A DNA stretch of 64,000 nt from an uncultured cyanobacterium (GCA_963793265.1 CAWBZI010000001.1:1248001-1312000); one strand, 5' to 3'. Numbered from the stretch's first letter, positions 41,366-45,475 are shown. Made by a program: numbers and translations. The notes: generated by a model not told the origin, from the letters alone.

Positions 41366-42274
41366 CTACTCAAAGCCAAGCAAGTCAAAGATATCGCGAT
41401 CCTTCAGCGGCTCAATTTCAAGCGGCGTCGCATCGTCAATCATGGTCTTTGCAAGCTTCAAATACTCATCCTGAACTGTCTTCACTTCAGGATCAGTGTC
41501 CTCCATTTCAAAGACAGTGCACTTCTTCAAACGGCTGCGACGAATCGCATCTACAGTTTTGAAGTGAGCCAGCGTCTTGAGGCCAACGCGGTCATTGTAC
41601 TTATCAATCTGATCAGTGCCCTCGCTGCGATTAGCAATAATGCCGCCTAAGCGAACCTTGTAGTTCTTCGCCTTAGAACGAATGGCCGCGACAATCCGGT
41701 TCATCGCAAAAATAGAGTCGAAGTCGTTAGCCGTCACAATCAAACAGTAGTGCGCGTGCTGCAAAGGTGCGGCAAAGCCACCGCAAACCACGTCGCCCAA
41801 CACGTCAAAAATAACAACGTCAGTTTCTTCAAGCAGGTGATGCTCTTTGAGCAGCTTCACCGTTTGACCCGTGACGTAGCCGCCGCAGCCAGTACCCGCA
41901 GGTGGCCCGCCCGCTTCAATGCACTGAACGCCGTTATAGCCTTCAAACATGAAGTCTTCGGTCTGCAGTTCCTCTGAGTGAAAATCGACCTCTTCGAGAA
42001 TGTCGATCACCGTAGGCACCATTCTCTTAGTCAGGGTGAAGGTGCTGTCGTGCTTAGGATCACAGCCAATTTGGAGGACGCGCTTGCCGAGCTTGGAGAA
42101 TGCGGCTGACAGGTTAGAAGAGGTGGTGGACTTGCCAATACCGCCTTTGCCATAAACAGCGATTACCAGCGCGCCTGTCTCTATTTTCATAGAGTCATCC
42201 ATATGGACTTGAACGCTGCCTTCGCCATCTTCACCTTTTTTGACTGCGGGGGGACGAACGGTTGAAGCTACCAA
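41366..42274 (-). CDS. chlL: DPOR iron protein (BchL-type)
   Basis: Motifs [24 protein letters not shown] and [12 protein letters not shown]-terminal [11 protein letters not shown] start after AGGAGA. Confidence 0.96.
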
Positions 42275-42356
42275 AATAATTCTCCTGTTTTCTTGTCGGG
42301 TTCTAAAAAATTGAGCGGACTGGAAGGAACGGTTTTGAAATAGTCTGCGGACTTAT

Positions 42357-44036
42357 CTATTTACCGATCGCTGCTTTGGCCTCGTAGAGCGTGTCTACTG
42401 TAATAGAAGAGATGCCGCGATCGCCTGCAAACTTCTCTGTGTTCCGCTTCACCTTGCCACGCACAAAGAAGGGAATCTTCTTTAGCTCAGCTAAGCCATC
42501 TGCACTCCAATTCACACCGTCTACTTCAACATCAGCATTGGGGACAGCTTCCGGCTCAGACCCCATCGCTTTAGCGTCGGAGTTCGCCGCAATTGGCGCA
42601 AAGTCGACGTTTGTTTCCTCGGCGGCGTGGGGCGCAGTATGCAAATGGCTCATATGGCCTTCTGCAAACTCAAAGTCCTCGCGGAACATCCCTATTAGAT
42701 GCTCCTCCAAACCCATCATTAATGGGTGAACCCAGTCATCAAAAATTACATTTGATCCTTCCCAGCCCATTTGGGGTGAGTAGCGAGCCGGAACATCCTG
42801 CACGTGAATTGGGGTAGAAATCACCGCGCAAGGAATGCCTAAACGTTTCGCAATGTGGCGCTCCATCTGGGTGCCGAGCACGAGTTCAGGCGCAGCTTCA
42901 GCAACCGCTTCTTCTACCGCTAAATAGTCATCACTGATCACCGCTTCAACGCCGTGCTGCTTAGCAACTTCTCTCACCTGGCGGGCGAACTTGCGGCTGT
43001 AGGTGCCGATGCCGACCAGAGTAAAGCCAAGCTCTTCAGTGGCGATTCTTGCAGCGGCGATCGCATGAGTCGCATCACCAAAAATAAACACCCGCTTACC
43101 CGTGAGATAAGTAGAATCTACCGAACGAGAATACCAGGGAAGCCGTGAAGCCCCTGCTGGCGCTGAAGAAGACAGACGAGAAGCGCCCCAGCTCCCTAAT
43201 GTATCTGCATGAGAACGCTCGATAGCACGGCTCACGTCAATGCCAGCGACTTCACCAATTTCGGCTAAGAAATCACGAGTCGCACCCACGCCAATCGGCA
43301 CCGTTTTTACAACCGGCTGATCAAAGTTGCGCTTTAGCCAGTCGCAAGTAGTCTGCGCGATCTCAGGATACAAACAGATATTGAAGTCTGCATCGGGCAT
43401 CCGCATCAAATCAGCAGGTGTCGCGCCTAAAGGTGCAACAACATTGGCATCTACACCGATTTCAGCTAATAGCTTCAACACTTCTTGAATGTCGTCGCGG
43501 CAGCGGAAGCCGAGCGCTGTCGGGCCAATAATGTTGGCCTTGGGTCGAATAACAGGATCGCGTGCGGGGCGCTTTACGCCTGGGGCGTAGGCTTTGTCGA
43601 GTAGGAGCGATCGCACCAAATGATACAGCGTCTCACTCGCCCCCCAATTCTCCTTTTTAGAATAAGCAGGCAGCTCCAGGCTCACAACCGGCACCGGCAG
43701 ACCCATACTTTTCGCCAAGGAGCCCGGCTGATCTTGAATCAGCTCCGCCGTACAGCTCTCGCCTACCAGCATTACATCCGGCTTAAACCGATCGTACGCT
43801 TCTTGCACAGAAGTCTTCACCATCTCTGCGGTATCACCCCCCAAATCTCTCGCCTGAAATGTGGTGTAGCTCACCGGAGGCCGCTTATCTCGGCGCTCAA
43901 TCATCGTAAACAACAAATCGGCGTAAGTGTCACCCTGGGGCGCATGAAGAACGTAATGCACGCCTTCCATCGAAGTTGCGATTCGCATTGTGCCAACGTG
44001 GGGTGGGCCTTCGTAAGTCCAGAGAGTCAGTTCCAT
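42357..44036 (-). CDS. chlB: DPOR subunit B (BchB-type)
   Basis: [23 protein letters not shown], and C-terminal PCP_red motif [14 protein letters not shown]. Confidence 0.96.
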
Positions 44037-44125
44037 AGTTAAAACGTAAAGGCTAAAACGTAAAGTTCGAGGAGGCAAATAGAAGAGAGAATCGATTCTT
44101 TGGGTTAGTCGCTACGAGCTAAGCG

Positions 44126-45475
44126 CTATACAGACAGTCGTCTGCGTCGTTCTGAAGAGCGCACAAACAGCTCAGCCAAATCGCCCGCCTGGTCGTAGCC
44201 GTGCAAAGGAGAGAACACCAGCTCAATTGACCACTTTGTTGAAAGCCCTTCAGCTTCCAGCGGATTGGCTAGGCCCAAACCACAGACCGTAATATCAGGC
44301 CGCGCCTCACGACAGCGATCTAGCTGCTTCTCTACATCTTGACCTTCAGAGACTGCCGTACCGGCTGGCAACAGCTTAATCTCAGCGTCCATCAACATCC
44401 GGTCAATATAAGGTGTGCCGACTTCAACTAGCTCCATGCCACATTCTCTTGATAGGAAGCGAGCTAACGGAATCTCTAGCTGAGAGTCAGGGAACAGAAA
44501 AGCCTTGCGGCCTTCGAGCGTTTCTTTGTATCGAGCTAAGCCTAAGTTTGCTCTAGCAACAGAAGGTGCGATCGCCCCTTCAAATTTCGCCTCATCCAAG
44601 CCCCAAGCATCTGCCGCTGTCTTCAGCCAGGCTGTTGTGCCCTCAACGCCAAAGGGATAGGGCGAAGGGAGTAATTCTGCACCGCGACTGATGAGCGATC
44701 GCACCGTGTTGCTCAAAAAGGGCTGAGCCACCAGCATCTTTGTCCCTTTACCCACCGCAGGCAAAGCCGACGCCCGACGAGGCGGAAAGAACGCCACCGG
44801 GCCAATCCCCATCTTGTCAAACAATCGTCTGAACTGATCTTCAACAACATCCGCCAGGCTACCGACAATCAATAGCTCAGCTTCTTCAGTCTGCTTGGCA
44901 GGCAGCACCGGCACCATCGAGTCCAAGCAAGCATCTTCGCCTTCAGTAAAGGTGGTTTCAATGCCGCTGCCCGAATAGTTAAGCACTCTCACCTTCGGGA
45001 AGTAGGCATGGTTCAGCTTTTCAGCCGCCTTTGCCAAATCCAGCTTAATCACTTCAGAAGGGCAAGACCCCACCAAAAATAGCGTACTAATATCAGGCCG
45101 ACGGCTCAATAGCTGCGCGACCACACGCTCTAGCTCATCGTTAGCATCAGCTAAGCCCGCCAAATCGCGCTCACCCAGCACCGCCGTCCCAAACCGGGGC
45201 TCGGCAAAAATCATCACGCCTGCCGCCGACTGAATCAAGTGGGCACAAGTCCGAGAACCCACCACCAAAAAGAAAGCGTCCTGCATTTTTCTATGCAGCC
45301 AAACAATTCCCGTTAGGCCGCAGAACACTTCTCTCTGGCCGCGTTCTTTTAATACAGAAATATCCTCTCTAACGGCCAGGTCTTTACCCGCCAGGTCTTT
45401 GGAGGCCAAATCCTTAGCAGGTGAATCGACACCCGTTGTATCGGTTGGAATTTGAGTGCAAGGCTCTAGCGCCAT
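44126..45475 (-). CDS. chlN: DPOR subunit N (BchN-type)
   Basis: [36 protein letters not shown] and GSCPSEVIK carry the three Fe-S cysteines. Confidence 0.96.

Follow-up and report, generated by a model that had tools for sequence, protein, structure and literature searches.

A Bch/picocyanobacterial-type chlN-chlB-chlL operon in place of the native DPOR genes of a beta-cyanobacterium

The DNA analysed here (the window, 64,000 nucleotides from the genome of an uncultured cyanobacterium) carries the genes chlN, chlB and chlL in one compact operon. Our main reading, to which the sequence comparisons lead us to give a probability of about 0.85, is that this operon is the host's sole DPOR, that it is of Bch/picocyanobacterial type, and that it was gained as a cassette which displaced the native set. 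The gene replacement itself is real, old and well integrated. The ancestor of the genus would have received a compact 4-kb chlN-chlB-chlL cassette from a cyanobacterium already carrying a Bch-type operon, and the cassette would have displaced the ancestral split genes (chlL-DUF5331-chlN, with chlB elsewhere), which were then cleanly deleted. In the predicted enzyme, ChlL would be the ATP-driven [4Fe-4S] electron donor that reduces the ChlN-ChlB heterotetramer, and ChlN-ChlB would reduce the C17=C18 bond of protochlorophyllide, giving chlorophyllide without light. This DPOR would operate alongside the light-dependent LPOR, whose gene is also present in the genome.

The three genes are adjacent in the order N-B-L (Table 1), as the initial annotation had described; the ORF listing agrees with its coordinates, and the protein strings that it quoted are present. 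The chlB ORF as listed spans 42357-44078 and encodes 573 aa from a TTG at 44078. Because the solved Prochlorococcus ChlB (2ynm_D) aligns only from residue 15 of this ORF onward, the true start is most likely the downstream ATG (MELTLW...), with which the intergenic gaps are 89 bases between chlN and chlB and 82 bases between chlB and chlL. The genes may well be co-transcribed. All three frames are intact, and L, N and B each exceeded DPOR equivalog cut-offs of NCBIfam: the N subunit reached 619.2 bits with NF002768 (cut-off 324) and 495.8 with TIGR01279 (cut-off 420), the B subunit 599.4 bits with TIGR01278 (cut-off 490), and the L subunit 442.7 bits with TIGR01281 (cut-off 345); the exception was NF002790, where the B subunit scored 895.5, slightly below the cut-off of 912.

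Table 1. Features of the operon, its flanks and the RuBisCO-related genes in the window
Feature	Coordinates	Strand	Description
chlN	44126-45475	minus	449 aa, DPOR subunit N, Bch/picocyanobacterial type; ORF and NCBIfam
chlB	42357-44036	minus	559 aa from the most likely start, ATG at 44036; DPOR subunit B; ORF and NCBIfam
chlL	41366-42274	minus	302 aa, DPOR ATP-binding iron-sulfur (L) protein; ORF and NCBIfam
Hairpin	41294-41326		Perfect, 13 pairs, palindromic, about 40 bases past the chlL stop; possible operon terminator from a consensus scan only
MITE-like dispersed repeat	45761-46013		Lies between chlN and the genes upstream; inverted arms of 48 nt with a 157-nt spacer
ftsY	46366-47880	minus	Native housekeeping gene, upstream boundary of the operon; TIGR00064, 344 bits
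higB	40964-41242	minus	HigB-like toxin (Pfam); variable downstream boundary
higA	40584-40964	minus	HigA (NCBIfam); variable downstream boundary
Uma2-family gene	40047-40580	minus	Uma2 (Pfam); variable downstream boundary
rbcL	10456-11886		RuBisCO cluster
rbcX	12030-12488		Cyanobacterial RbcX, equivalog 164 bits (cut-off 150)
rbcS	12604-12957		RuBisCO cluster
Activase-like gene	36379-37716		AAA+ protein with a C-terminal RuBisCO-small (SSUL) domain

Compared with 2ynm_A, the P-loop of ChlL (GKGGIGKS) is identical, and so are two cysteines, one of them in DVVCGGF, which we take to be the ligands of the inter-subunit [4Fe-4S] cluster. The ORF translation of ChlN contains three cysteines, in FCGL, RTCAH and GSCPSE, presumably ligands of the NB-protein cluster, and we assume the same role for Asp36 and Cys95 of ChlB. 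In its alignment to 2ynm_D, ChlB retains Asp36, Arg48, Cys95, Asp290, His394 and Leu426 (P. marinus numbering). Four of these six, Arg48, Asp290, His394 and Leu426, are the substrate residues of the B subunit (PMC13474568).

By sequence, the operon is closer to the DPOR of Prochlorococcus and Rhodobacter than to the ordinary cyanobacterial enzyme. ChlN scored 585 bits to PDB 2ynm_C and 565 bits to both 3aek_A and 8vqh_A, against 249 bits to 2xdq_A; these structures come from Prochlorococcus (2ynm), Rhodobacter/Cereibacter (3aek, 8vqh) and Thermosynechococcus (2xdq) (PMC13474568). ChlL scored 541 bits to 2ynm_A and ChlB 793 bits to Prochlorococcus 2YNM. Averaged over the genus, ChlN was most similar to Gemmatimonadaceae (71.5% identity), followed by other non-cyanobacteria (67.1%), picocyanobacteria (64.7%) and, far lower, canonical cyanobacteria (35.8%); the canonical type was 52.0% identical on average in ChlL and about 33-35% in ChlB. 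Identity of ChlN to 70-odd named loci was 58-75%, and to Roseobacter-group plasmid copies 64-67%. The clade of Bch-type sequences was separated with a support of 100 from canonical cyanobacteria, Heliobacterium, Chloroflexus and Chloracidobacterium. Bit scores, identities and trees all bear out the type that had been assigned to the operon from its N-termini and gene order.

Ordinary cyanobacterial ChlN and ChlB do carry other signatures, as had been proposed. In a sister genus the canonical proteins read ...HTFCPISCVAWLY... (ChlN) and MKLAYWMYAGPAH (ChlB). The motif FCP[IVLM] was found in 16/16 canonical ChlN, FCG[LM] in 39/40 Bch-type cyanobacterial ChlN, and MxLxxWxYEGP in 40/40 Bch-type ChlB. 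The gene order N-B-L had been called typical of picocyanobacteria and purple bacteria alike, which holds for the former and only partly for the latter: it was contiguous in 46 of 48 Bch-type cyanobacterial loci, while among 57 non-cyanobacterial loci only 5 had bchL directly after bchB, with a median gap between B and L of 3759 bases.

The genome is 99% complete, and protein and family searches found one copy of each DPOR subunit. Only one ChlN-family gene scored above cut-off, the chlN of the operon, and no canonical chlL, chlN or chlB or remnant of them was found elsewhere in the genome. Canonical ChlL, ChlN and ChlB of a sister genus used as queries (E <= 1e-3) matched the operon, a nifH-like gene and two minor places only, the latter a weak match of ChlL over 55 residues on contig C6 and a PCP_red ORF of 55 aa. 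Canonical DPOR genes are split into chlL-DUF5331-chlN and a distant chlB, and the separation of chlL-chlN from chlB in typical beta-cyanobacteria was indeed seen in the canonical and sister-genus loci. Sister genera have the gene order geneA-geneB-chlL-DUF5331-chlN. At C1:623.6-626.3 kb of the host genome we found geneA, geneB and DUF5331 (74% identical), arranged as in the sister genera, with neither chlL nor chlN. Because no canonical copy was found elsewhere and DUF5331 is the sole survivor at the ancestral locus, the operon replaces the native DPOR and is not a supplement to it; of the two possibilities left open by the initial annotation, the first stands and the second falls. The absent native counterpart, the recognisable ancestral locus and a phylogeny in conflict with host taxonomy together describe a xenologous displacement.

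The host is a beta-cyanobacterium, as had been recognised from the window, which contains rbcL-rbcX-rbcS and an activase with an SSUL domain. A CcmM-like frame of 889 aa lies 16 kb outside the window and gave one 343-bit match and four further matches to SSUL repeats. A search for CsoS2 (PF12288) gave no match, and the search's own control likewise matched nowhere.

Upstream, the operon is bounded by ftsY. This gene is native, because over its conserved part FtsY shares 81-85% identity with sister genera versus 60-62% with the Pseudanabaena-like genus. A mosaic ftsY, which would be a sign of recombination-mediated integration, was considered and rejected, the identity pattern being that of a native ftsY. 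In 4/4 sister-genus loci the block mgtE-DUF502-nusB-ftsY is retained with no DPOR gene adjoining. The MITE-like repeat beside chlN had 34 blastn matches in the genome, 14 of them of at least 100 nt. Among 10 loci fetched from the genus, 3 again had the ftsY-chlN junction and 1 had the chlL-higB-higA-Uma2 junction, which also occurs in the named locus L041. The operon's flanks vary between members of the genus, and for this reason we only infer a single insertion event. Terminator-like sites in the region were not in excess (8 versus 5.8 +/- 2.4 in shuffles), and the same applied to the promoter scan.

The Bch type was detected in 33 of 36 genomes of the genus in one search and in 39 of 41 in another, and all genomes in which it was missed are 52-87% complete. 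Over the genome pairs compared within the genus, the DPOR genes are 79-97% identical. The closest named records to the genus are Phormidesmis MAGs, with ChlN identities of 88% and 85%. The remaining 17 genera of the family gave matches in 99 of 109 genomes, and among the matches listed none exceeded 38% identity; the Bch type thus occurs in 1 of the 18 sampled genera of the host's family. One draw of 401 cyanobacterial genomes contained 283 with the canonical type, 96 with the Bch type, 22 with neither and none with both. The two DPOR types are mutually exclusive in this draw, and no transitional genome holding both was seen among the 401. Further carriers of the Bch type are a Pseudanabaena-like genus, four smaller lineages and all sampled picocyanobacteria. 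In one genus (g77) some species have the Bch type and others the canonical type; its members are 67-80% identical, and in the DNA comparison the flanks of the cassette were dispersed over different contigs. The trait is therefore not peculiar to the host organism, being genus-wide and recurring in several non-picocyanobacterial lineages.

Trees of ChlL, ChlN and ChlB with Bch and Chl references were built by quick searches, with SH-aLRT as the support. The 50%-representative library put the whole Bch-type clade into one cluster and yielded mostly fragments, and 13 full-length representatives were used. Five of these 13, which had very long branches within the Bch-type clade (P0102, P0105, P0048, P0008 and P0012), were excluded from later trees. 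The operon did not fall among the ordinary beta-cyanobacterial ChlLNB. It belongs to a clade of cyanobacteria only (SH-aLRT 100), together with four further non-picocyanobacterial lineages, grouping with genera from four other families, and within this clade the genus sits three nodes deep (SH-aLRT 98-100). Since the operon sits within a cyanobacteria-only clade, its donor was most likely another cyanobacterium. The branching order of the filamentous carriers does not track family assignments. ChlN divergence was about 82% between the genus and other filamentous carriers, 84% within the genus and about 80% between canonical families; the transfers are old, because divergence from carrier to carrier is no smaller than within the genus or among canonical families. 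Sequence similarity alone is no proof of transfer, and the case is made by the patchy distribution and the scar. These, with the conflict between gene tree and taxonomy, sustain the proposal that the module was horizontally acquired.

Deeper in the tree, all 29 cyanobacterial Bch-type rows were joined in the 73-row concatenated tree (SH-aLRT 96). The filamentous and picocyanobacterial clades were not joined in ChlN-only trees, and the ChlN data did not reject the grouping of all cyanobacterial Bch-type rows (p-AU 0.314). The Gemmatimonadaceae branch adjoins the filamentous clade. The 73-row concatenated tree placed the root of the Bch-type clade inside Proteobacteria and the 48-row tree placed it among cyanobacterial rows; in the ChlN tree that included other phyla it fell at a trichotomy at the base. 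The branch to the outgroup measures about 10 changes per column in the concatenated trees. With a root placement this unstable we make no call of polarity, from Proteobacteria to Cyanobacteria or the reverse.

Contamination from a purple bacterium or a picocyanobacterium, or a chimeric assembly, was considered in view of the unusual sequence type and of the mis-binned proteobacterial bch contigs known in public MAGs (for example L058), and its probability is negligible. The contig of the operon extends at least 1.86 Mb, with native genes on both sides. Five HIP1 sites (GCGATCGC) lie in the operon, a density of 1.22 per kb where the genome as a whole has 1.21, and its GC is at the native level; together with the genus-wide presence, this agrees with the earlier suggestion that the HIP1 sites point to long residence. 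Metagenome contigs span 39821-41966 and 42171-45797, with the qualification that run X1 may come from the source sample, and break at the MITE-like repeat, where the depth spikes. Synteny in relatives speaks the same way: ftsY-chlN is found in three other assemblies of the genus and chlL-higB in one, and an assembly chimera, which had been named beforehand as a possible refutation, is excluded by the recurrence of both junctions. It is very unlikely, too, that the genes were kept but no longer serve as DPOR, being silent or recruited to another nitrogenase-like reaction. PMC9600594 describes DPOR as dispensable and often lost where LPOR is present, and the 22 genomes with neither type are in line with this. 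A search of sequencing runs listed no RNA run that contains this stretch. Against such a loss of function stand the intact frames, the conserved substrate-binding and cluster residues, the scores above equivalog cut-offs and the identity of 79-97% within the genus.

Two histories compete with a transfer from another cyanobacterium. Both DPOR types may have been present in early cyanobacteria, the patchwork arising by differential loss with no transfer into the genus; ChlN divergence between Bch-type lineages (about 77-83%) is indeed as deep as that of the canonical type between families, and in 2 of 4 trees the outgroup joined near cyanobacterial Bch-type rows and not inside Proteobacteria. 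We regard this as improbable, since it would require dozens of losses in parallel and a long period of coexistence, yet both types occur together in none of the 401 genomes, the Bch type is limited to single genera within otherwise canonical families, genus g77 has both kinds in different species, and the branching order of filamentous carriers is out of step with their families. There is similarly little chance that the genus gained the operon directly from a phototroph of the Gemmatimonadota or Proteobacteria. The nearest non-cyanobacterial relative of ChlN is the BchN of Gemmatimonadaceae (69-75% identity), which branches beside the filamentous clade, and the two cyanobacterial clades separate in ChlN-only trees; a direct gain is opposed by the position of the genus three nodes deep among cyanobacteria, by the contiguous N-B-L order that is nearly confined to cyanobacterial loci, and by the joining of the 29 cyanobacterial rows, which the ChlN data tolerate. 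Acquisition of the cassette from a cyanobacterium remains our preferred reading.

Among known systems, the picocyanobacterial ChlL-ChlN-ChlB, as in Prochlorococcus marinus (2YNM), resembles the operon in type, N-B-L order and catalytic residues, and it is likewise the sole DPOR of its hosts (canonical ChlN in 0/41 picocyanobacterial genomes). It differs in that mean identity reaches only 65% for N, 68% for B and 82% for L, that the operon falls in a separate, strongly supported "filamentous" subclade, and that picocyanobacteria are alpha-cyanobacteria whereas this host is a beta-cyanobacterium of filamentous type whose large genome carries rbcX, CcmM and the SSUL activase. The BchL-BchN-BchB of purple bacteria and Gemmatimonadota (Rhodobacter capsulatus 3AEK, Cereibacter sphaeroides 8VQH) belong to the same subfamily, with equal ChlN scores to both structures. 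There, however, bchL is apart from bchB in 52/57 loci, mostly by about 3.8 kb, within a photosynthesis gene cluster, while here the three genes stand alone amid housekeeping genes and are predicted to serve chlorophyll and not bacteriochlorophyll. The canonical and plastid DPOR (Thermosynechococcus 2XDQ, Leptolyngbya boryana) shares the family models, the architecture and, as predicted here, the reaction; its identity to the operon is 36% (N), about 33-35% (B) and 52% (L), its genes are split, and the type is absent from this genome. For the native L. boryana enzyme, PMC4500134 puts the oxygen limit of DPOR-dependent growth at about 3%.

The odd placement of Phormidesmis priestleyi ChlL is already known: Tahon et al. 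2016 noted "Phormidesmis priestleyi Ana-like" ChlL reads and marine unicellular cyanobacteria among proteobacterial BchL (PMC5165242). This is the same phenomenon and, as the closest named records are Phormidesmis MAGs, probably the same genus as here. That remark is one sentence on a ChlL amplicon tree; it does not extend to the N and B genes, to how the operon is built, to the disappearance of the canonical genes, or to the spread of the type through the genus and into further carrier lineages. In the relevant parts of PMC3595025, PMC7842958 and bioRxiv 10.1101/2021.05.26.445609, the proteobacterial-type DPOR is seen as a hallmark of Prochlorococcus, Synechococcus and Cyanobium, and is cited as gene flow from proteobacteria to picocyanobacteria with its direction unsettled. 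Here ordinary beta-cyanobacteria from at least six further lineages have the Bch type as their only DPOR, and in one of these lineages the empty ancestral locus is still visible. These lineages, the mutual exclusion and the scar uncouple the history of DPOR from that of the alpha-carboxysome. The new carriers also split the long picocyanobacterial branch that hinders rooting. When cyanobacterial MAGs are annotated, a "bch-like" DPOR should not on its own be taken as evidence of contamination.

A wider reading, which we offer tentatively and with the odds somewhat against it, is that the cassette has moved repeatedly between distant cyanobacteria, that outside picocyanobacteria it has taken the place of the split canonical DPOR on at least six occasions, and that the two never coexist stably. 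The six displacements would be those in the Phormidesmis-like, the Pseudanabaena-like and the four smaller lineages, with one genus still mixed between species. If this is true, the picocyanobacterial DPOR would be one more case of spread within the phylum, and no element of a unique proteobacterial "alpha-cyanobacterial package". In that case the sequences of cyanobacteria and Gemmatimonadaceae may lie basal in the Bch-type radiation, and the question would be reopened whether purple bacteria possibly got the enzyme from a cyanobacterial lineage. One-way replacement would imply an advantage of the Bch type, such as oxygen tolerance or iron economy, or an easier re-acquisition after loss. Culturable filamentous hosts, Pseudanabaena and Phormidesmis, would allow the two enzyme types to be compared for oxygen tolerance and dark growth.

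Three head-to-tail ORFs on the minus strand of the window encode the N, B and L subunits of dark-operative protochlorophyllide oxidoreductase (DPOR), and contain the N-terminal strings quoted for them in the initial annotation. The true start of chlB is most likely an ATG within its ORF, because the solved Prochlorococcus ChlB aligns only from ORF residue 15 onwards. With this start the intergenic gaps are only 89 and 82 bases, which suggests co-transcription of the three genes. The toxin-antitoxin pair next to chlL, together with a Uma2-family gene, recurred in a single further genome among those fetched for the genus and so marks a variable region. 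The MITE-like repeat upstream of chlN had 34 blastn matches in the genome, 14 of them at least 100 nt long, and a further dispersed repeat near 39700-39860 had five.

Features of the DPOR locus and related loci (window positions, or contig C1 of the window's own genome where prefixed)
Feature	Position	Strand	Remarks
SSUL-bearing protein	36379-37716	minus	Rubisco-activase-like AAA+ protein, C-terminal SSUL domain; 25 kb from rbcLXS
higB-higA	40584-41242	minus	toxin-antitoxin pair directly downstream of chlL
Hairpin	41294-41326		perfect, 13 pairs, after chlL
chlL	41366-42274	minus	above NCBIfam TIGR01281 cut-off (DPOR L)
chlB	42357-44078 (ORF)	minus	probable start ATG 44036; above NCBIfam TIGR01278 cut-off (DPOR B)
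chlN	44126-45475	minus	above NCBIfam TIGR01279/NF002768 cut-offs (DPOR N)
MITE-like repeat	45761-46013		48-nt inverted arms
ftsY	46366-47880		adjoins the cassette
nifH-like gene, then nifD/K/E/N-like frames	C1:377264-383362		outside window
PCP_red-only ORF	C1:603995-604159		55 aa, free-standing; outside window
DUF5331 gene	C1:623581-623964		outside window

The operon belongs to the purple-bacterial and picocyanobacterial type (Bch type), not to the canonical cyanobacterial type. ChlN scored 585 bits against 2ynm_C, 565 bits against 3aek_A and 8vqh_A, and 249 bits against 2xdq_A; ChlB scored 793, 686, 636 and 345 bits against the solved DPOR structures, and ChlL 541 bits against 2ynm_A. The assignment of individual PDB entries to the four organisms with solved structures is in part our presumption. 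These organisms are Prochlorococcus marinus, Cereibacter sphaeroides, Rhodobacter capsulatus and Thermosynechococcus vestitus (excerpts of a 2026 review, PMC13474568). As means for the genus over trimmed alignments, ChlN identity was 84.0% within the genus, 77-83% to the four other filamentous (non-picocyanobacterial) carrier lineages, 71.1% to lineage g56, 71.5% to Gemmatimonadaceae, 67.1% to other non-cyanobacteria, 64.7% to picocyanobacteria and 35.8% to canonical cyanobacteria; mean ChlL identity to canonical ChlL was 52.0%. The ordinary-type motifs given in the initial annotation were confirmed in a sister genus, and the ChlN/ChlB motifs divide the two types cleanly (16/16, 39/40 and 40/40).

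The P-loop of ChlL and the cysteines which we take to ligate its cluster match the solved Prochlorococcus complex. Asp36, Arg48, Cys95, Asp290, His394 and Leu426 of ChlB are likewise conserved, Asp36 and Cys95 being presumably key residues. The other four are named as key residues in the excerpts of PMC13474568. The genome also encodes the light-dependent enzyme LPOR (515 bits, cut-off 331), and the organism thus has the usual pair of light-dependent and dark enzymes; its DPOR is presumably expressed and active.

The host carries beta-type markers, as had been claimed: rbcL-rbcX-rbcS (with psbD) and the SSUL-bearing activase-like protein lie in the window, and a CcmM-like gene lies 16 kb beyond it, which together indicate a beta-cyanobacterium. 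Among named public records the nearest are MAGs designated Phormidesmis sp. (ChlN identity 88% and 85%).

An assembly artefact was considered and rejected. HIP1 density in the operon is close to that of the whole genome (1.22 against 1.21 per kb), and GC content is 52.4% in the operon and 50.6% in the genome. Both junctions recur in other assemblies, mgtE-DUF502-nusB-ftsY-chlN in three and chlL-higB-higA-Uma2 in one of ten fetched loci of the genus. Metagenome contigs span 39821-41966 and 42171-45797, a weak support as the run that matched best is possibly the source sample itself; at the MITE-like repeat, contigs end and depth spikes.

The initial annotation left open whether the acquired module replaces or supplements the native DPOR, and the genome decides for replacement. 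Protein searches of this 99% complete genome revealed one ChlN, one ChlB (the second ChlB match is only the PCP_red ORF) and one ChlL; further ChlL matches were a nifH-like gene with 38% identity and, weakly, 43 residues on contig C5. The TIGR01279 model found a single gene above its cut-off. Canonical chlL, chlN and chlB were not found by tblastn with sister-genus queries (E <= 1e-3), whose matches were limited to the Bch-type operon, the nifH-like gene, the PCP_red ORF and, weakly with ChlL, 55 residues on contig C6. In sister genera, the canonical order is chlL-DUF5331-chlN in 4/4 loci, with chlL-side neighbours traceable in two of them. The window's genome keeps the DUF5331 gene (74% identical) and these neighbours in order at C1:623.6-629.4 kb, with only 137 bases at the expected place of chlL and no trace of chlN at this locus. 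DUF5331 was kept though its chlL and chlN neighbours were deleted, which makes a functional tie to the canonical DPOR proteins improbable. Canonical chlB stands at a separate locus in 5/5 sister genomes, where its flanks are too little conserved to define a scar.

PCP_red is the C-terminal domain of ChlB/BchB, and the small ORF shares 42% identity with the end of ChlB in either type. With nifD/K/E/N-like frames after its nifH-like gene, the genome seems to have a nitrogenase cluster.

Within the genus, Bch-type ChlN was found in 33 of 36 genomes in one search and 39 of 41 in another (82-90% identity); genomes without it are 52-87% complete. The order contains one family only, and in the other 17 sampled genera of this family a ChlN match occurred in 99/109 genomes, none above 38% identity among the matches listed. 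We surveyed a draw of 401 genomes from the class, balanced across families and thus not a census, each with a completeness of 85% or more, and assigned ChlN type with an E-value threshold of 1e-100. Ninety-six genomes had the Bch type, namely 16/16 of this genus plus the window's own genome, 41/41 of the picocyanobacterial family, 31/31 of a Pseudanabaena-like genus, 3/3 of genus g67, two genomes of genus g77, and one each of g56 and g110; it occurred in 0/25 of the rest of the window's family and 0/10 of the rest of the family to which the Pseudanabaena-like genus belongs. The picocyanobacterial genomes are 1.6-3.7 Mb, and their ChlN shares 86-88% identity with the protein from a named Cyanobium MAG; in the trees, sequences of the Pseudanabaena-like genus intermingle with named Pseudanabaena ones. 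A canonical query matched 283 genomes of the same draw. Both types occurred together in 0/401 and neither in 22/401 (E <= 1e-100); genomes of the window's family with no ChlN match at E <= 1e-20 include two that are 98% and 95% complete (G116 and G168). DPOR loss thus seems common, and loss could have preceded re-acquisition of the cassette. Genus g77 (family f14) is mixed, with canonical G251, G436 and G503 against Bch-type G497 (L154) and G509 (L155), and is the best place to catch replacement under way; its members are too divergent for cassette boundaries to be mapped by DNA comparison.

The N-B-L order, proposed as a shared signature, held for cyanobacterial Bch-type loci (contiguous in 46/48) but rarely for non-cyanobacterial ones (5/57). 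Some labels are odd. Locus L058, a MAG labelled Synechococcus sp. UW140, is probably on a mis-binned contig, because its bchN shares 78-80% identity with betaproteobacterial copies and its layout is N-B-gap-L, as in photosynthesis gene clusters. In the trees the Thermoflexus MAG L075 joins a betaproteobacterial sequence (support 99-100); the label of L099 (Acidimicrobiaceae MAG) is similarly odd.

For the trees, full-length subunits from 80 named loci gave 41, 36 and 25 non-cyanobacterial rows (99-, 73- and 48-row trees), to which subsets of the fetched cyanobacterial loci were added; FastTree was used on ChlN (99 rows) and IQ-TREE LG+C20 PMSF quick trees for the others. All trees gave a support of 100 to a Bch-type clade and to a picocyanobacterial clade, and 98-100 to a filamentous clade composed of cyanobacteria alone, and the tree check proposed in the initial annotation placed the window's operon in the Bch-type clade (support 100, ChlN and concatenated trees). 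In the filamentous clade g110 branches first; of the rest, this genus pairs with g67, and the Pseudanabaena-like genus with g77. In the concatenated tree of 73 rows, all 29 cyanobacterial Bch-type rows stand together (SH-aLRT 96), nested in Proteobacteria with Gemmatimonadaceae nearest; in the 48-row tree the 25 non-cyanobacterial rows form one clan (93) and the root falls among cyanobacterial rows. When Chloracidobacterium, Heliobacterium and Chloroflexus were included, the ChlN tree had a basal trichotomy with the two cyanobacterial clades apart, and joining them was not rejected by the ChlN data (p-AU 0.314).

Because the genus is nested in the cyanobacteria-only filamentous clade, the donor of its operon was most likely another cyanobacterium. 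Divergence among the carrier lineages is about that within the genus and about that among canonical ChlN of different families, which points to old transfers, roughly as old as the genera. The loci of the carrier lineages share nothing except the three DPOR genes. Some members of this genus have the cassette next to ftsY, and in the Pseudanabaena-like genus ftsY lies about 3.5 kb upstream of chlN in 5/7 loci (L145, L147, L148, L149 and L151) and directly after chlL in L150; ftsY is native in both genera (60-62% identity between them).

In excerpts of earlier reports, DPOR of marine Synechococcus/Prochlorococcus or the "PSC clade" clusters with Proteobacteria, with polarity left open (PMC3595025; PMC7842958; likewise bioRxiv 10.1101/2021.05.26.445609; PMC7947762), and "Phormidesmis priestleyi Ana-like" ChlL reads fall among proteobacterial BchL, alongside marine unicellular cyanobacteria (PMC5165242). 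A search of a full-text literature library found no report of the Bch type in Pseudanabaena or the other carrier lineages described here, of mutual exclusion or of the scar. The finding of the initial annotation is correct and its reading supported; the operon exemplifies a known phenomenon, is old and shared across the genus, and had in part been anticipated. The wider pattern, in which a compact cassette took the place of the canonical DPOR in several unrelated lineages of cyanobacteria, is a more interesting result than the window's operon itself.
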